Below, one piece after another: positions 1 to 24,296 of a DNA stretch of 24,296 bases; position 1 is the first letter of the stretch, and each line of letters begins with the position of its first letter. Origin of the DNA: Candidatus Saccharimonadota bacterium. GTDB taxonomy: Archaea > Nanobdellota > Nanobdellia > Pacearchaeales > GW2011-AR1. Where the stretch lies: assembly GCA_049511795.1 (NCBI GenBank), contig JBEKXS010000003.1, positions 1 to 24,296 on the forward strand, written 5' to 3'. The translations under genes were made by a program, and so were the position numbers. The notes under the pieces were generated by a model, which saw only the letters and a program-made list of their open reading frames with translations, searched no databases and had not been told where the DNA came from.

Positions 1-122
1 ACAAGATAGCCGAATATCGTAGAAAGAACAAAGACAAGATAGCCGAACAAAAAGCTGAATATTATAGAAAGAACAAAGACAAGATAGCTGAATATTTAGC
101 TGAATATTATAGAAAGAACAAA
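1..122. repeat. Terminal direct overlap; nt 1-122 are identical to nt 24175-24296 (circular closure or terminal redundancy)
   Basis: Base-by-base comparison of both ends. The overlap lies inside a coding tandem-repeat array, but unique flanks on both sides fit one continuous ORF. Confidence 0.9.
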
Positions 123-629: not shown

Positions 630-1517
630 ATGGAAAAAAAAGAGGTAGATAAAGAAGTAAAAGTCCAAAAGTCAAGCTTTTACTTGTTCTTATTCAATCG
701 CATCAAGGAGGGAAAAACACCTTCTTCTATTTCTAAGGAGTATCAAATCCCTAAGCAAAAGCTCCAATATTATCTAAATCAGCTGAAGAAAGGAGGTTTC
801 ATAGAAAAAGTCGGTTACAAATCATGGAAAGTAAAAGTAAAAGAGTTCTCGTTAGGAACGAGACCGACAACCAACCTTCATGCCTTACAAATCAATATTC
901 CTATTCTTTCAGGGGAAATCAAGGGGTCGGACTGGGAAGTAAAAGAAGAATTAAGAAACTGGACTCCAAAATACAAAACTTTGGACATCTTAGGAGGTCT
1001 TACCATTAAAAACAATAATAATAAATCTATCAGCATCTTTGCTCATTCAAGGGATTTGAAGGAGTTGAAGGAGATTGATGCCCTTTCTTATGATATAGTA
1101 AATTTCGCATTAGAATGGTTTAAGCGAGACTTTAATGTAACTCTTGACTTGTTCAATGCAGAAGTCAAATCTCTTCATATCGCCACTCAAGATAAAGTAA
1201 GCGAAGATATGCAGAAGCAAGGAGATAGGTTTGAATTGGACTTGCAGAAGAAGGCAGAAAAGGTTTTTCCTAAAGATAAGATAGACGGAAAAGCATGGAT
1301 TGATGGTTCTCCTTTCACTTTTACAGCAGAAACAAATGATAAGGAATGGAAAAGAGCTTACTTGTCTATGCCTTTTATGATGGAAGAAATAGCAAAAGCA
1401 ACCCATTATATCGCATTAAACTATGCTTCCCATGTCAAACTGGTAGAAAAAGCAAGTAAAGTAATGGAGAAGCTGGATAAAAGATTATCTCAAACTAAAT
1501 TAACGGAGTTCCTATGA
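630..1517 (+). CDS. 295-aa protein with N-terminal winged-helix-like DNA-binding region; candidate regulator or replication-initiation protein
   Basis: The N-terminus, ...TPSSISKEYQIPKQKLQYYLNQLKKGGFIEKVGY, looks like a wHTH. It is first in an ATGA-coupled operon. No HUH or polymerase motifs were seen. Confidence 0.6.
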   Translation: MEKKEVDKEVKVQKSSFYLFLFNRIKEGKTPSSISKEYQIPKQKLQYYLNQLKKGGFIEKVGYKSWKVKVKEFSLGTRPTTNLHALQINIPILSGEIKGSDWEVKEELRNWTPKYKTLDILGGLTIKNNNNKSISIFAHSRDLKELKEIDALSYDIVNFALEWFKRDFNVTLDLFNAEVKSLHIATQDKVSEDMQKQGDRFELDLQKKAEKVFPKDKIDGKAWIDGSPFTFTAETNDKEWKRAYLSMPFMMEEIAKATHYIALNYASHVKLVEKASKVMEKLDKRLSQTKLTEFL

Positions 1518-1714
1518 CACTTGAACAATCAGTTTCTTCAAATCCAGATCCAGCAATTCGTTTTTATGAAAGCAACCTTACAGAAGAAGAAATAGCAAAG
1601 CTAAAGCTATTCTCCAAGACAGAGGAAGACTATGTATCCAGGTTGATTGATGCTTACAAGATGACTTTTCTAAACAAGAGATATGAGATAGTAAGAGGAG
1701 AAGAAGAATTATGA
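1514..1714 (+). CDS. Hypothetical 66-aa acidic protein
   Basis: ORF track; ATGA overlaps at both ends. Confidence 0.55.
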   Translation: MTLEQSVSSNPDPAIRFYESNLTEEEIAKLKLFSKTEEDYVSRLIDAYKMTFLNKRYEIVRGEEEL

Positions 1715-1953
1715 AGCAGCAGCTAATTCCCCAAGTTCAGAAAAAACCAATCATTAGAGTTCTCTGTCCTTACTGCCAGAAGAACTATTTGGTTTTGAGA
1801 AATAGACAATCAAACTTGAACCTTTCTTTTTTTGTAAGAAAATGGAAGGAAGAAAGAGAATGGCATTGCTCTGGCGGATGTATTTCTTCTTTCCCTGAAA
1901 ACTACTTTGATGTTTTTCCACAGTTTGAGAAATTTGTGGAGAGGAAAGTATGA
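1711..1953 (+). CDS. Small zinc-ribbon-like protein (CPYC ... HCSGGC)
   Basis: ORF track; Cys pairs; ATGA overlaps at both ends. Confidence 0.55.
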   Translation: MKQQLIPQVQKKPIIRVLCPYCQKNYLVLRNRQSNLNLSFFVRKWKEEREWHCSGGCISSFPENYFDVFPQFEKFVERKV

Positions 1954-2057
1954 AAGAAAAAATACAGAAAATCTTGTTCAAGATAGGAGAAGCAATCCTT
2001 ACAGGATTAGGAGTTACAATAGGCGCTTACTTGGCAGGAGTAGTGATAAGAAGATGA
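1950..2057 (+). CDS. 35-aa single-pass membrane peptide (MKEKIQKILFKIGEAILTGLGVTIGAYLAGVVIRR)
   Basis: Manually found. The ATG overlaps the previous TGA (1951-1953), and its TGA (2055-2057) overlaps the recombinase ATG (2054). Confidence 0.4.
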   Translation: MKEKIQKILFKIGEAILTGLGVTIGAYLAGVVIRR

Positions 2058-2596
2058 AAGTTTGTTTATATGCAAGAGTTTCAAAAGAAGAAGAAGGAAT
2101 GCAAGACCCAAACAATCAGCTTATTCCTTTAAGAAAATTCTGTGAATCAATGCAATGGGAAATAAAAAAAGAATTTATTGACAGGGCTTCTGGAGGTTCT
2201 GCAAACAGACCAGCATTTCAATTAATGTTAAGTGAAGTAAAGCAAAGGCATTTTGATTTGATTCTTATTTGGGCATTAGACAGATTTTCAAGAGAAGGAA
2301 TTGTTAGCACATTAAAATATTGCCAACTTCTTAATGATTATAAAACTTCCTTAAAGAGTCTGCAGGAATCATGGTTAGATACAAGAGATGAAGGCATGGG
2401 GCAATTAATGTTGGCAATGATGGCTTGGTTTGCCCAACAAGAAAGAAAAAGAATAAGTGATAGAACAAAAGCAGGATTAAAACAAAAGAAAGAAGAAGGG
2501 AAGATTTTGGGAAGACCAAAGGGATGGAGAAAAAGTAAAATAAAAGGGGTTCAAAATCCTTCTTATAAAAACACTCAAAAAGAGGTAGAGGTTTAG
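2054..2596 (+). CDS. Small serine recombinase (resolvase/invertase catalytic domain), 180 aa
   Basis: MKVCLYARVSKEEEG (catalytic Ser context), DRASG, LIWALDRFSREG, and the E-helix QQERKRISDRTKAGL...GRPKG. I prefer the ATG at 2054 over the track start at 1907. The C-terminal tail is short with no obvious HTH. Confidence 0.8.
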   Translation: MKVCLYARVSKEEEGMQDPNNQLIPLRKFCESMQWEIKKEFIDRASGGSANRPAFQLMLSEVKQRHFDLILIWALDRFSREGIVSTLKYCQLLNDYKTSLKSLQESWLDTRDEGMGQLMLAMMAWFAQQERKRISDRTKAGLKQKKEEGKILGRPKGWRKSKIKGVQNPSYKNTQKEVEV

Positions 2597-2636
2597 ATGT
2601 CCGTTTAATATGCAATTTGAAATAATCCAACTAAAA

Positions 2637-2789
2637 ATGGGAGGATGGAAGAAACTGAAATTTCCAAGAAGATGCAAAGTATGCAACAAAGTATTAGGCA
2701 AACAGAACAAATCAGGAATCTGCTCTAATTGCTCTCTTGAAATTCGTCAAAAAAATCAACATGACATACTCCCATACCCTAAAGGGTAG
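2637..2789 (+). CDS. 50-aa zinc-ribbon protein (CKVC...CSNC)
   Basis: Manual translation gives MGGWKKLKFPRRCKVCNKVLGKQNKSGICSNCSLEIRQKNQHDILPYPKG*. Its 3' end runs into the 50-nt boundary element. Confidence 0.4.
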   Translation: MGGWKKLKFPRRCKVCNKVLGKQNKSGICSNCSLEIRQKNQHDILPYPKG

Positions 2790-2810
2790 GGTATCTTAAA
2801 GAAAATGGAA
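2761..2810 (+). repeat. 50-nt gene-boundary element, copy 1 (identical to 23899-23948) with a dyad-symmetric core
   Basis: Perfect 50/50 identity. Hairpin is ATACCCTA (2774-2781) with TAGGGTAT (2787-2794). An overlapping palindrome TACCCT-AA-AGGGTA spans 2775-2788. The element ends with ATGGAA, the first 2 codons of the downstream gene. Confidence 0.9.
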
Positions 2811-3473
2811 ACAAAAACAATAAAGATTTTGAATTTATATGCTGGAATTGGTGGAAATAGAAAACTATGGACAGGAGATATAGAAGTTACGGCAGTAGAG
2901 AATGTTCCAGAGATAGCTAAGATATACCAAGACTTTTTCCCTAATGATAAGGTAATAGTAACAGATGCACACCAATTTTTATTAGAACATTTTAAAGAAT
3001 TTGATTTTATATGGAGTTCTCCACCTTGTCCAAGTCATAGTAGGATAAATACTATGTTAGTAAATGGAAGAGGGTTTAAAGCAAAGTTTCCAGATATGAA
3101 ACTTTATGAAGAGATATTGTTTCTACAAGCATACTTTAAAGGGAAATGGATTGTTGAGAATGTTAGAAGTTTTTATACTCCTTTAATTAAACCACAAGAA
3201 AGAGGTAGACATTATTATTGGAGTAATTTTGAGATAGGATATTTAGGAAAAAGTAAGAAAGTTAGGAATGATAAAGGTTCAATTTTGAGTTTAAAAATGA
3301 AAGATAGAGAAATGGTTGTTAGTGATTTTAAAGATTATAAAGGGGATAAAAGGACTTTGATAAATAATTGTGTAGAACCTATTGTAGGATTATTAATATT
3401 TGAAATGGCTTTCAAGAAACCACAAAAAACTTTATTAGAACAAAAAGGGGGTCTCAATTCCTCCCAAGCTTGA
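2805..3473 (+). CDS. Compact DNA (cytosine-5) methyltransferase, 222 aa; no adjacent restriction endonuclease recognised
   Basis: Motif I LNLYAGIGGN; motif IV SSPPCPSHS (Pro-Cys); motif VI IVENV; motif VIII-like QERGRHYYW; motif X-like NNCVEPIVGLLIF. The target-recognition region is very short. Confidence 0.8.
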   Translation: METKTIKILNLYAGIGGNRKLWTGDIEVTAVENVPEIAKIYQDFFPNDKVIVTDAHQFLLEHFKEFDFIWSSPPCPSHSRINTMLVNGRGFKAKFPDMKLYEEILFLQAYFKGKWIVENVRSFYTPLIKPQERGRHYYWSNFEIGYLGKSKKVRNDKGSILSLKMKDREMVVSDFKDYKGDKRTLINNCVEPIVGLLIFEMAFKKPQKTLLEQKGGLNSSQA

Positions 3474-3504
3474 AAGCATGGGTATCCTTGAGACGATTAT
3501 ATGA
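3443..3504 (+). repeat. 62-nt gene-boundary element, copy 2 (identical to 158-219)
   Basis: Perfect identity. Contains the last 9 codons plus stop of the methyltransferase and the ATG (3501) of the next gene. Confidence 0.9.
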
Positions 3505-3806
3505 ACACAAAAGAATTCTTCACTAAGTGGAAGCAGGGAATAGAAGCAATAACACCTTACCAGCAAGTCAGGGGTCAGTTATTCAGCATAATCCCAATCT
3601 TCATAGGAATTATCATAGGAATAATAGTAACAATAAAATCTCATACTTGGTGGCTTGTCTTAATTTTAGGTGGCTCTTTAATCCTGACTTTCTTCCAATT
3701 TATAGGAATGCTGCAAAGATTTTTAAGGTTGAGAGTCCAAAGAGATATTATGAAGTCCATGCAGGATGTGATTCCAGGAGGTTCAAGTGAAACCAAGACT
3801 CCTTAG
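3501..3806 (+). CDS. Membrane protein, 101 aa, two predicted TM helices
   Basis: ORF track; two hydrophobic stretches (IIPIFIGIIIGIIVTI, WWLVLILGGSLILTFFQFIGM). Confidence 0.6.
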   Translation: MNTKEFFTKWKQGIEAITPYQQVRGQLFSIIPIFIGIIIGIIVTIKSHTWWLVLILGGSLILTFFQFIGMLQRFLRLRVQRDIMKSMQDVIPGGSSETKTP

Positions 3807-5273: not shown

Positions 5274-6140
5274 TTAGCCGTGTTTTTCCGACACTTCGCC
5301 GTCATTTTCTTCTGAGGTATCGGAGTATTCTTCAAGTATCTTGTAAATTTCAGCACGGCTCAAGCCACAAATCTCTGAAATCTCCTTTGCAGGTATTCTT
5401 TTCTTTTCTTTTAGGTAGACTATCAGCTTATTCCTTTGCTGAACCTTCTTATCCTGGTTCTGTTTGTTCTTTGATTGTTCAATCAGATGCTTTCCTTTCA
5501 TCTTCTCATACAAATCCCAGTCAGCAATCCATTTCTTTGTATATCTTCCCCTGAAGTTAGGTTTCTCTGCATTGTAATCAACAAACTTGTTCCCTTTGAC
5601 ATACAATTTCCTTTTTTCATCCCTTCCGAAAGCTGCAAAGTAACCTCTTTCAAAAGAATCAGAATAAACAACGAACAAATGCGAAGTCCTGAAGATAGCA
5701 ATGCCTTTAGACAAGTCAAAGAAATTAGGAAGGCAAAGAATAATGAATAATCCTTTCTGCCTTATTAGTTGCAGATGGTTTACAATCCTTAAAAATTCAG
5801 CAGAGCTTGAAACTCTTGAATTTAAGCTCTCAAAAGATTCATCAAGCATGAAAGCCATACCTGTTTTGGCATCAGGACTTGCTGTTCTTTCAATCAATCC
5901 ATTTTCTCCTGTTCCTGTAAAGCATATTCTGTCTTTTGCATTGAATGAAGGGTCAAGAAACTTGCATATCTGCTGTGTGAATGTAGATTTCCCTGTTCCT
6001 GGAATCCCTGCGACAATAGCCAAGTAATCCCATCCCCTTTTCAATACAGAATTTTTTACAGCTTCAAGATTTTCCTTTAATGTTTCATCAATATACATTT
6101 CATCATCAGAACCATCATCTCTTTTTGCAGGGACTATCAT
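5274..6140 (-). CDS. P-loop NTPase (AAA/DnaA-like ATPase) with a C-terminal HTH-like tail, 288 aa
   Basis: Walker A is VAGIPGTGKST; Walker B is MAFMLDES. The C-terminal ...IPAKEISEICGLSRAEIYKILEEY looks like an HTH. Size and position are reminiscent of the conserved fusellovirus DnaA-like ATPase (an inference). Confidence 0.75.
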   Translation of the reverse strand: MIVPAKRDDGSDDEMYIDETLKENLEAVKNSVLKRGWDYLAIVAGIPGTGKSTFTQQICKFLDPSFNAKDRICFTGTGENGLIERTASPDAKTGMAFMLDESFESLNSRVSSSAEFLRIVNHLQLIRQKGLFIILCLPNFFDLSKGIAIFRTSHLFVVYSDSFERGYFAAFGRDEKRKLYVKGNKFVDYNAEKPNFRGRYTKKWIADWDLYEKMKGKHLIEQSKNKQNQDKKVQQRNKLIVYLKEKKRIPAKEISEICGLSRAEIYKILEEYSDTSEENDGEVSEKHG

Positions 6141-6544: not shown

Positions 6545-6646
6545 AATTATGAAACTATAAAAAACACAATCTTTATTAAGTTTGTGTTTATATTAAAATT
6601 ATGGAAAATCGCAAGATTCTTCCCTTCATGAAGGAGGGTAGTAAAG
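6545..6646. promoter_or_regulatory. Divergent control region between the ATPase operon and the capsid operon
   Basis: AT-rich. Has the TATA-like TTTATATTAAAA (about 6587-6598) and an 8-bp inverted repeat AAACACAA (6562-6569) with TTGTGTTT (6582-6589). The SD AAGGAGGG lies before ATG 6647. Confidence 0.45.
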
Positions 6647-7167: not shown

Positions 7168-8433
7168 ATGAATCATAAAATTCACAATGGGAACGATTTG
7201 TTTAAAATGATTTTTTGTTCCCTTCTCTTTCTTAGTCTCATTAGTTTTGCTTCTGCTTCTTTCGGCTACGGAAATATAAATACTTCCACAAAATATGGAT
7301 ATGGAAATATTTTCACAACATCTCCCCAAGTAAATAATTATAACAATACATATACAAATGTAACAAATGGAACAGATAGCTTTGCAGGAAATTTCTCCAA
7401 CTTCTCCTCTGTTTATGCCATCGGAACTAATGGAACATTTTATCTCGCTTCAAATCCTTCTTCATTCATAACTGCTTCTTCTCTTTCTCCTTATCTTCTT
7501 ATAACAAATTGGAACTCCACAAATTCATCTTATAACACTTTTTTAACAAATAATACTTTCTTGCAGATTTCAAATTGGAATTCAACAAATTCAAGTTATA
7601 ATACAGCTTTTTTTTTAGCAACCAATAATACTTTTATGAAATTCTCGGATTGGAATAGCACTAATTCAAGCTATCTTACATCAGAAACTTACTGGAATGG
7701 AAATTGGTCTGCATTCAAAACAATAAATCAATCTGTAACCAATAATACATTCTTACAAATAAGCAATTTCAATGTTACAAATTCCTCTTACCTAACTTCC
7801 TATACAGAAACAGACCCAAAATGGACTGCTAACTATTCAGGATTCCTTACAACTCAAAATTATGCTCTTAATTGGAATAACAACTGGACATGGTTTAAAA
7901 CAATTAACACAACTATCTCCAATGGAACATTCGCACAATTAGTTTCAACATCAAATCCTACTACGGCTAATTTCACAGGCAATCTTTCTGTATTCCAGAA
8001 CTTCACAGTTGATTCAGGAACATTCTTCGTAGATGCACTTCATAATTATATTGGTGTCAATCTTTCAACTCCTCAAAATGCACTGAATGTTTTTGGAGAT
8101 GCAAACATAACAGGAACAATATACACAAATTTCAATCAGAATTTAACAATACCTTATTTGTTGGCAACAAACAATACTTTCACTCAGCTTACAATCCTTA
8201 ACAACGGAACATATACAACATGGGCAAATATTTTCAATGGAACAATAGCAACCAATGGAACACAAAATAACTTTTCAGTTGCAGGGATAAACACAAACTC
8301 AATAAGGATAAATGGAACAAATGGAAACCAGAGTGCAAAATACAATCTTCATGTCAATGGAAGTGCAGGAAAGATATGCTGGATAAATTATACAGGAGGA
8401 TTGTTCAACTGGTCTGACTGCCCACAAGGTTAA
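7168..8433 (+). CDS. Secreted virion-surface protein candidate, 421 aa, hyper-rich in N-glycosylation sequons with internal repeats
   Basis: Signal-like N-terminus MIFCSLLFLSLISFASA. I count about 40 N-x-S/T sequons by hand. NNTF(L/M)(Q/K)(I/F)S(N/D)(W/F)N(S/V)TNSSY repeats 3 times, preceded by one shorter NWNSTNSSY copy. Confidence 0.7.
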   Translation: MNHKIHNGNDLFKMIFCSLLFLSLISFASASFGYGNINTSTKYGYGNIFTTSPQVNNYNNTYTNVTNGTDSFAGNFSNFSSVYAIGTNGTFYLASNPSSFITASSLSPYLLITNWNSTNSSYNTFLTNNTFLQISNWNSTNSSYNTAFFLATNNTFMKFSDWNSTNSSYLTSETYWNGNWSAFKTINQSVTNNTFLQISNFNVTNSSYLTSYTETDPKWTANYSGFLTTQNYALNWNNNWTWFKTINTTISNGTFAQLVSTSNPTTANFTGNLSVFQNFTVDSGTFFVDALHNYIGVNLSTPQNALNVFGDANITGTIYTNFNQNLTIPYLLATNNTFTQLTILNNGTYTTWANIFNGTIATNGTQNNFSVAGINTNSIRINGTNGNQSAKYNLHVNGSAGKICWINYTGGLFNWSDCPQG

Positions 8434-23948: not shown

Positions 23949-24296
23949 CTAAAGCAATTTATAAAACAAATACCAACACCAGAAGAAACACTTGTTGATT
24001 ATGATAAAAAGATAGCCGAACAAAAAGCTGAATATTATAGAAAGAACAAAGACAAGATAGCCGAATATCGTAGAAAGAACAAAGACAAGATAGCCGAATA
24101 TTTAGCTGAATATTATAGAAAGAACAAAGACAAGATAGCCGAATATTTAGCTGAATATTATAGAAAGAACAAAGACAAGATAGCCGAATATCGTAGAAAG
24201 AACAAAGACAAGATAGCCGAACAAAAAGCTGAATATTATAGAAAGAACAAAGACAAGATAGCTGAATATTTAGCTGAATATTATAGAAAGAACAAA
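23943..24296 (+). CDS. 5' part of the KIAEY/YRKNKDKI repeat protein (no stop in window; continues at nt 3..188 if circular)
   Basis: MELKQFIKQIPTPEETLVDYDK, followed by units KIAEQKAEYYRKNKD, KIAEYRRKNKD and KIAEYLAEYYRKNKD. There are 118 complete codons to the window edge. Confidence 0.7.
   Translation, partial: MELKQFIKQIPTPEETLVDYDKKIAEQKAEYYRKNKDKIAEYRRKNKDKIAEYLAEYYRKNKDKIAEYLAEYYRKNKDKIAEYRRKNKDKIAEQKAEYYRKNKDKIAEYLAEYYRKNK
24008..24296 (+). repeat. Coding tandem-repeat array of 33- and 45-bp units (continues into nt 1-125)
   Basis: Unit order read directly: 45a, 33b, 45c, 45c, 33b, 45a, 45c. Confidence 0.85.
24175..24296. repeat. Terminal direct overlap (identical to nt 1-122)
   Basis: See the first feature. 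Confidence 0.9.

Follow-up and report, generated by a model that had tools for sequence, protein, structure and literature searches.

Three architectures have been described for serine recombinases and each of them comprises a DNA-binding domain, namely a C-terminal helix–turn–helix (HTH), a large C-terminal region or, in the IS607-type enzymes, an N-terminal HTH (Boocock and Rice 2013, PMC4058570). The recombinase of the present study fits none of the three. It is encoded in a stretch of 24,296 nucleotides which was analysed as a whole and to which we refer as the window. As the protein has no HTH_7 domain, it is not a canonical small serine recombinase of the resolvase/invertase group; as it has neither a Recombinase (PF07508) nor a Zn_ribbon_recom (PF13408) domain, it is not a large serine recombinase; and as its catalytic domain begins at residue 1–2, it is not IS607-like. 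The 72 in-frame codons upstream of its start are occupied by other open reading frames.

The invertases Gin and Hin have the catalytic domain, the E-helix and the G-R-P minor-groove arm in common with the window protein. In addition, the gix site and the candidate site described below have the same inner layout, in which an A-tract and two G/C positions lie on either side of a 2-bp centre. In phage Mu, the sequences AAACC-TC-GGTTT and AAACC-GA-GGTTT are centred on the annotated boundaries of the G segment, and gin lies 67 nt downstream of one of them. The repeats of the Bacteroides Mpi invertase may contain an AAACG-NN-CGT-like core, which we do not count as evidence. On the other hand, the window protein is devoid of an HTH, so that nothing would be available to read the outer 6–7 bp of a gix-type site, and its conserved dyad measures about 16 bp compared with 26 bp for the gix-type site. 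Moreover, the window genome has one site and no inverted pair, and its strain variants show no invertible segment. The resolvases of Tn3 and gamma-delta have the same fold and the same catalytic residues; here, too, the gene adjoins the site, and directly repeated sites are the substrate that we propose for the window protein. These resolvases, however, possess a C-terminal HTH and an upstream res with three subsites, whereas the window has no HTH and a single dyad at the 3′ end of the gene. The fusellovirus SSV differs in the enzyme itself, as it carries a tyrosine recombinase gene which contains attP. In agreement with the original prediction, no tyrosine integrase (Phage_integrase) was detected in the window ORFs of at least 80 aa.

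In two reports (PMC3510496, PMC5175349), engineered recombinases consist of a resolvase/invertase catalytic domain joined to a zinc-finger, TALE or dCas9 module. In these enzymes the residues up to the arm constitute a self-contained catalytic module, and the minimal core site of recCas9 is recognised apart from the flanking sequences specified by the DNA-binding domain. The natural window protein is essentially this catalytic module. The engineered enzymes depend on activating mutations and on a DNA-binding domain joined to them, whereas the natural clade has no added domain nor, as far as known, such mutations.

The recombinase gene and its parts are located as follows.

2054-2596, plus strand: serine recombinase gene P0001, 180 aa, stop codon TAG at 2594-2596
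2081-2083, plus strand: codon of the nucleophile Ser10, read from the sequence
2396-2494, plus strand: E-helix, residues 115-147, from the AlphaFold2 secondary structure; the dimer/tetramer and minor-groove helix
2510-2518, plus strand: G153-R154-P155 arm motif, invariant in 36/36 close relatives, equivalent of the resolvase/invertase minor-groove arm
2522-2569, plus strand: conserved tail motif, residues 157-172 (GWRKSKIKGVQNPSYK), from the conservation across 38 sequences

Judged from its sequence and predicted fold, this ORF is a genuine small serine recombinase without an HTH, as the original prediction had claimed; Pfam, AlphaFold2 and the tail length all bear this out. The protein contains the catalytic motifs YARVS (Y6, R8, S10), DRASG (D43) and LDRFSREG (D76, R77, R80) as well as ERKRISDRTKAGL and GRPKG (residues 153–157). 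Pfam assigns residues 4–150 to the Resolvase family PF00239 (E 7.9e-35, 120.5 bits at a gathering cut-off of 23.3) and reports neither HTH_7 nor any second domain in the 180-aa protein. Sequence matches in the PDB are catalytic domains, namely those of TP901-1 integrase (2.5e-13), gamma-delta resolvase (1.5e-10) and Gin (2.6e-9), and the Tn3 resolvase catalytic domain is also among the closest solved structures by sequence. The alignment with gamma-delta (query residues 37–157) stops at the GRPKG arm, which corresponds to gamma-delta residues 141–145. D43, D76, R77, R80, E130, R131 and R137 align with D36, D67, R68, R71, E118, R119 and R125 of gamma-delta, and the numbering of Y6, R8 and S10 is identical in both proteins. 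Residues S10, R8, D43, D76, R77, R80 and R137 are invariant across 36 relatives, and the catalytic core has 54 invariant columns in the alignment of close relatives. The AlphaFold2 model, calculated from a 36-sequence alignment, has a mean pLDDT of 81 and displays the canonical alpha/beta core and the long E-helix. Structure prediction on the full ORF had been proposed as a check for a C-terminal HTH, and none is found in the model, in which the tail has pLDDT values of 68/58/50. With Foldseek only serine recombinase catalytic domains are matched (top TP901-1, gamma-delta and Tn3) with TM values of up to 0.82, normalised by target.

After GRPKG 23 residues follow, and not about 28 as had been stated; 23 is also the number in the string that was quoted with that statement. 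In 38 sequences of the window's type, the mean top-residue frequency is 0.81 for tail residues 158–173 and 0.82 for the core, whereas residues 174–180 are unconserved (0.30). Thus, the tail is a constrained short motif and no remnant. The consensus of its first 16 residues is GWRKSKIxGVxNPxYK. Several types of short tail are found: the window's GRPxGWRKSKIxGVxNPxYK, a type with GQWKGGRPKK, forms in which just six residues follow the arm, and a type ending in SGY-LRW which occurs in bins of Omnitrophota, Saccharibacteria, Woesearchaeota and Thermoplasmata. In P0070, P0072, P0117, L192 and L193 a fused CxxC-GW-H...C knuckle directly follows GRP.

The identical 180-aa protein is encoded on 11–12 contigs from several samples (NCBI, JGI, ENA and Logan) and the relatives end at the same place. 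The stop codon is therefore real, and the sequencing error that had been considered as a way to restore a longer C-terminus can be set aside. A length-restricted homologue search yielded 1814 matches, and the best 120 of these 1814 (at least 58% identity) are all 161–220 aa long and contain PF00239 alone; in JGI the relatives bear the name 'DNA invertase Pin-like'. No longer, fused relative above 36% identity was retrieved when longer proteins were searched. By an exhaustive HMMER search, 64 clusters at E 1e-30 or better were retrieved from 1.84 billion representatives. Tail length, counted from the residue that follows the R154 equivalent, was measured in 201 fetched loci: it is at most 32 aa in 76 of the 87 relatives with at least 50% identity and at least 42 aa in every relative with 40% identity or less.

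A tree of 109 catalytic cores consists of a 94-row clade (SH-aLRT 98) and an outgroup clade of 15 members. Within the 94-row clade 79 members are short-tailed and four are Zn-knuckle forms, and seven rows were read as HTH-bearing (L142, L020, L063, L176, L179, L183 and L185). Pfam was run on L142, L020 and L176 out of these seven and confirmed HTH_7 in all three, so that the search is able to detect this domain. The outgroup members have long tails throughout (15/15, 39–86 aa), which are HTH-like by reading of the sequence, without a Pfam run. Well-supported branches force at least seven state changes. As the HTH-bearing members are scattered within one well-supported clade, this domain has probably disappeared on several occasions. 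Members of the clade occur in viruses and in mobile elements from DPANN archaea, CPR bacteria, Omnitrophota and others. This branch of HTH-less serine recombinases is large and apparently undescribed; full-text searches yielded no description of such a clade or of the dyad site to which we now turn.

2593-2608, no strand assigned: imperfect dyad of 16 bp, TTAGATG-TC-CGTTTAA, with central TC; candidate crossover site, overlapping the TAG stop codon

The dyad emerged when the sequences 3′ of the stop codons were placed side by side for the window's clade, and the pattern is thus a post hoc one. The family consensus is WWAAAYG-NN-CRTTTWW and occurs at gene 3′ ends across the clade; in the window copy five of the seven dyad arm positions pair. 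Within one mismatch of the consensus there is one copy in the window, where 0.81 would be expected by chance for the window alone. As one match is to be expected by chance, the case rests on the position of the site and on its recurrence in the family. In the clade-a set (24 loci, 135.9 kb) the zone from −60 to +160 nt around the recombinase stop makes up 3.9% of the sequence, and it contains all ten perfect matches and 18 of the 25 one-mismatch matches. Shuffled clade-a sequence contains 0.26 perfect and 6.5 one-mismatch matches. Since the pattern was derived from these 24 loci, it was tested on the other 87 loci of the tree. Of the 28 matches in this independent set (586 kb), 11 are no more than 60 nt away from the stop. 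A survey of 181 unique loci (1.24 Mb) yielded 29 occurrences of the 12-nt core AAAYG-NN-CRTTT, and 22 of these occurrences are gene-proximal, 16 at the 3′ end of the gene and six within 200 nt upstream, the latter mostly beside distant HTH-bearing relatives in Mycobacterium, Calditrichaeota and Caldilineaceae. Clade-b sites are longer (AAATAAACG-NN-CGTTTATTT), and clade-c sites read AAAGG-GA-CGTTT and are situated immediately 3′ of the stop codon. In five loci (L126, L129, L138, L144 and L127) the last codons of the gene contain the motif, so that the end of the tail is encoded by it.

The motif is sequence-specific and stays with the gene across bacteria and archaea, and a promoter or terminator is therefore unlikely. 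We suggest that the dyad at 2593-2608 is probably the crossover site of the recombinase and that this compact stop-codon dyad is the likely answer to the question how an enzyme without an HTH is targeted to DNA. The 50-nt and the 62-nt cassette ends were also considered as recombinase sites and were rejected, as a short-BLAST search found no copy of them in any other recombinase locus; since the motif at 2593-2608 is family-wide, the cassette dyad is not the site of the family. By reading of the sequence, no further half-sites of the res II/III type are present near 2593-2608. In 12 of 29 loci the start of a downstream ORF falls between −8 and +15 nt relative to the site end, which is suggestive of a gene-boundary position and not diagnostic. 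Two pairs of loci are anecdotal: the homology of L130 and L141 ends at the dyad site, and the homology break of L009 and L010 lies 54 nt upstream of the gene and thus off the site. Across five MAGs the degenerate site pattern is too noisy to pick out a second site.

The ends of the window overlap (1-122 is identical to 24175-24296), which corresponds to a circular genome of 24.2 kb. Contigs from at least five samples are 99.4–100% identical, collinear and circularly permuted, and neither an inversion nor a host junction was seen in them. An inversion switch can be rejected, as a strong inverted-repeat pair of such sites is absent and the variants are collinear throughout. The genome encodes, in tandem, two small hydrophobic proteins which are capsid-like and of which one gives a weak PHROG structural match, and judging from these proteins a spindle-shaped or pleomorphic virus is plausible. 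The window is contig 3 of a bin of 530,569 bp which is 92.5% complete and whose SSU rRNA scores 1295 bits with the archaeal and 1009 bits with the bacterial model. An archaeon of DPANN size is thus a possible host, for which the co-binning is a hint only.

Taken together, we lean slightly towards the view that the window encodes an active small serine recombinase of an HTH-less clade which recombines at the stop-codon dyad and thereby resolves multimers. A recombinase dimer would bind the 16-bp dyad TTAGATG-TC-CGTTTAA on the stop codon of its own gene by means of those elements alone which touch the inner half in a normal crossover site, namely the catalytic domain, the E-helix in its C-terminal portion, the GRP arm and the basic/aromatic tail. 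Two site-bound dimers would then form the synaptic tetramer, Ser10 would cleave both strands at the central dinucleotide, and after a 180-degree rotation of one half the ends would be rejoined. As there is a single site per 24.2-kb circle, the substrates would be multimers or co-infecting genomes: either direct repeats of the site within dimeric or concatemeric genomes, which would be converted to monomers, or alternatively sites on two co-infecting genomes, which would lead to an exchange of modules. We consider resolution to monomers most likely to be the main role and module exchange to be a by-product. Cre/loxP of phage P1, where one short dyad lies beside the gene of a tyrosine recombinase, likewise resolves multimers and cyclises genomes; this is an analogy of role only, as enzyme family and chemistry are unrelated. 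A single site without accessory sites provides no topological filter that would favour resolution over fusion.

According to the best-supported reading, a minimal serine recombinase acts, probably alone, at a single dyad. When isolated, the catalytic domains of the resolvases studied so far are poor DNA binders, and accordingly a 16-bp site might offer too little affinity to an unaided enzyme. Only tentatively, and with the odds rather against it, do we extend the proposal to the point that no DNA-binding domain is needed at all, that is that the catalytic domain, the E-helix, the GRP arm and the 16-residue tail together would read the 16-bp site while the enzyme's own C-terminus has been swapped repeatedly. 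Since the site is located on or in the last codons of the gene, recombination would exchange the C-terminus of the enzyme together with the downstream gene. Such swapping would explain why HTH, Zn-knuckle, basic-tail and nearly tail-less forms are interleaved in one clade. Tail length and dyad arm length do not correlate (rho 0.08), which leaves a role of the tail in DNA reading unsupported.

The proposal that the enzyme acts alone has to be weighed against a separate targeting partner, which could be a small Zn-ribbon protein, the wHTH protein or a host factor. Such a partner would take over the sequence recognition formerly due to the HTH, and the dyad would be no more than the catalytic core within a larger composite site. 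Three neighbouring ORFs have to be considered.

2610-2789, plus strand: Zn-ribbon-like ORF, 59 aa, starting 1 nt after the dyad and found in this virus only
1711-1953, plus strand: Cys-rich ORF, 80 aa, virus-specific and without relatives beside other family members
630-1517, plus strand: wHTH protein, 295 aa, of a family encoded upstream of the recombinase gene in four distinct viruses

Zn-ribbon-like ORFs thus flank the recombinase gene on both sides. Within 450 nt of recombinase genes without an HTH, the density of small CxxC...CxxC ORFs is 2.2-fold that of the remainder of the same loci (22 in 68.8 kb near the genes versus 55 in 370 kb elsewhere, P 0.003), and the fused Zn-knuckle of several relatives points in the same direction. 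This enrichment may, however, merely mirror the place of recombinase genes among small early genes. Both Zn-ribbon ORFs had been named as candidate partners in the original prediction, which finds no support, as they are confined to one virus and no relative of either was detectable next to the other family members. The ORF at 2610-2789 is in addition uncalled in the annotations of NCBI, JGI and ENA, and its last codons enter the 50-nt cassette end; ORFs of 35 and 66 aa between the Zn-ribbon-like ORFs are likewise found in this virus only. The wHTH protein had been put forward as well, and its recurrence in four viruses would speak for it. Nevertheless, the same family is also found upstream of the HTH-bearing recombinase L020, which suggests conserved synteny and not compensation, and from its gene context the 295-aa protein looks like a syntenic neighbour rather than a replacement of the HTH. 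An alignment of four sequences revealed no invariant set of Arg or Tyr residues in it, and the complex prediction of recombinase and wHTH protein gave a score of 0.00, which says nothing either way. No neighbour family is present in more than 9 of 76 loci, and the commonest one is a P-loop ATPase of about 290 aa (9/76, also at L207 and L208), of which the 288-aa ATPase-like ORF of the window (5274-6140, minus strand) may be the counterpart. We therefore regard a separate partner as rather unlikely.

Alternatively, the protein could be the integrase of a temperate virus, with the dyad as attP, a matching site in the host and the gene at the provirus edge. It is the sole recombinase of the genome, the site adjoins the gene like the attP of many integrases, and the five loci with the site within the last codons recall integrase genes that span their attachment sites. 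Clade-b and clade-c relatives are moreover found in long MAG contigs. An integration role had been suggested in the original prediction together with a search for proviruses, and the contigs and genomes covered here lend no support to such a role. All six long contigs are circular permutations of about 22–26 kb which are collinear and without host junctions, and no clade-a member was found in 185,579 species-representative genomes. The best attB candidate in the co-binned archaeal genome has three mismatches and lies within a 514-aa ORF with no tRNA nearby; the identity extends over 12 nt and is non-palindromic, and the control with the reversed pattern yields more matches, so that this candidate is not convincing and was rejected. 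In addition, the sequence past the dyad site is conserved in two Omnitrophota contigs, which argues that the site is internal to the element. An integrase thus appears improbable to us, and multimer resolution remains the preferred reading.

It has also been considered that the protein modulates another recombinase, either in mixed tetramers with a serine integrase or in directionality control. In fact several clade-b genes lie directly upstream of a large serine recombinase, overlapping it or separated by 3–5 nt (L044, L048, L145 and L146, also L014 and L045), and Recombinase and zinc beta-ribbon domains are found in the genes neighbouring clade-b relatives. Others are next to a tyrosine recombinase (L014, L049, L055, L147, L190 and L201). 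In the window and its bin, however, there is no second PF00239 or Phage_integrase recombinase, the window recombinase being the only PF00239 gene of the 530-kb bin, and the gene-linked site is present with or without an adjacent second recombinase. Furthermore, the catalytic residues are all invariant across the clade, which argues for catalysis beyond mere binding. A modulator is therefore quite improbable. Decay of a truncated gene, or an artefact of assembly, has nothing but the short length in its favour and is effectively refuted by the recurrence of the identical ORF on 11–12 contigs from independent samples, by the short-tailed PF00239-only relatives and by the conservation of core and tail, and we give it practically no credence.

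The significance of the finding lies in a large and conserved clade of serine recombinases, present in bacteria and archaea, which has no DNA-binding domain and for which a candidate cognate site of 16 bp is available. Should the enzyme prove to act on its own, it would represent the smallest natural system for site-specific recombination in the serine recombinase family. It would then offer a test bed for how a catalytic module selects its DNA and a compact scaffold for designed recombinases, which are now made by cutting the DNA-binding domain off resolvases and invertases. For the poorly known viruses of DPANN archaea the gene and its dyad represent a candidate genome-resolution module, and DPANN viruses of this kind depart from the fusellovirus pattern of a tyrosine integrase.

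Just 3' of the recombinase gene, which encodes an HTH-less serine recombinase of 180 aa, the window carries a methyltransferase cassette, and insertions at the same gene end are found in two loci of recombinase relatives:

window 2758-3515, methyltransferase cassette with hairpin ends
L148:880-1720, methyltransferase cassette with hairpin ends, just 3' of the recombinase
L207:10582-12224, N6/N4 methyltransferase gene and IS200/IS605 Y1 transposase gene (PF01797), in the context of recombinase P0035 of a related virus

At L207 the two genes lie 15 nt 3' of the recombinase and its site. These are three independent insertions adjoining the same gene end, and this supports the reading of the cassettes as IS200/IS605-related.

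In the window, a 59-aa Zn-ribbon-like ORF (2610-2789) starts 1 nt past the dyad, the candidate crossover site on the recombinase stop codon, and takes its last 10 codons from the 50-nt cassette end. As its final codons thus lie within the element, and the ORF upstream of the second copy of this element (window 23896) stops exactly at the element edge, the end of the 59-aa ORF may have been altered by the cassette insertion.

Three copies of the dyad are present in the related locus L151:

L151:1181-1212, a tandem pair of copies, about 500 nt 5' of the recombinase gene
L151:2407-2422, one copy, 155 nt downstream of the recombinase gene

With the tandem pair upstream and the single copy downstream, the recombinase gene of this locus is bracketed by sites.

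Directly after the GRP arm, some clade members (P0070, P0072 at L006:6001-6591, P0117, and those at L192 and L193/L197) have a short CxxC-GW-H...C zinc-knuckle-like tail. In a MAFFT alignment the GW of these tails aligns with the GW of the window recombinase tail, and on this sequence comparison the latter may therefore be a degenerate zinc knuckle. Domain-less small serine recombinase genes whose tail is of the SGY-LRW type have a large serine recombinase gene, a tyrosine recombinase gene or, in L014, both immediately downstream, the bins being named Omnitrophota, Saccharibacteria, Staskawiczbacteria, and Thermoplasmata:

L014:5001-8754, small gene, then both a large serine and a tyrosine recombinase
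L044, L048, L145, L146, small gene, then immediately a gene of about 540 aa
L049, L055, L147, L190, small gene next to a tyrosine recombinase gene

The wHTH protein belongs to a family of 295-325 aa, of which four divergent members were compared:

window 630-1517 (+)
L011:3022-3999
L020:3972-4925
L199:822-1778

H84, H183, D225, S227, E234, and H268 are invariant in these four, and the C-terminal two thirds match no Pfam family; a replication or nuclease protein could be encoded here.

The window genome is circularly closed (about 24,174 bp, window 1-122 being equal to 24175-24296), and one NCBI assembly carries two near-identical copies as separate contigs (JAFMOA010001204.1 and JAFMOA010001199.1; lengths 24,301 and 24,338 bp). 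The main differences among the variants concern two genes, one for the repeat protein (72, 124 or 139 aa) and one for the glycoprotein (408 or 421 aa). A 23-nt inverted repeat (window 6569-6591 and 8287-8309, 91% complementary), whose left arm falls in a divergent intergenic region, flanks the pair of capsid-like genes together with most of the gene for the glycoprotein; among the strain variants compared, no inversion of the segment between its arms was seen. For the recombinase gene end, the adjoining insertions hint at an insertion hot spot.
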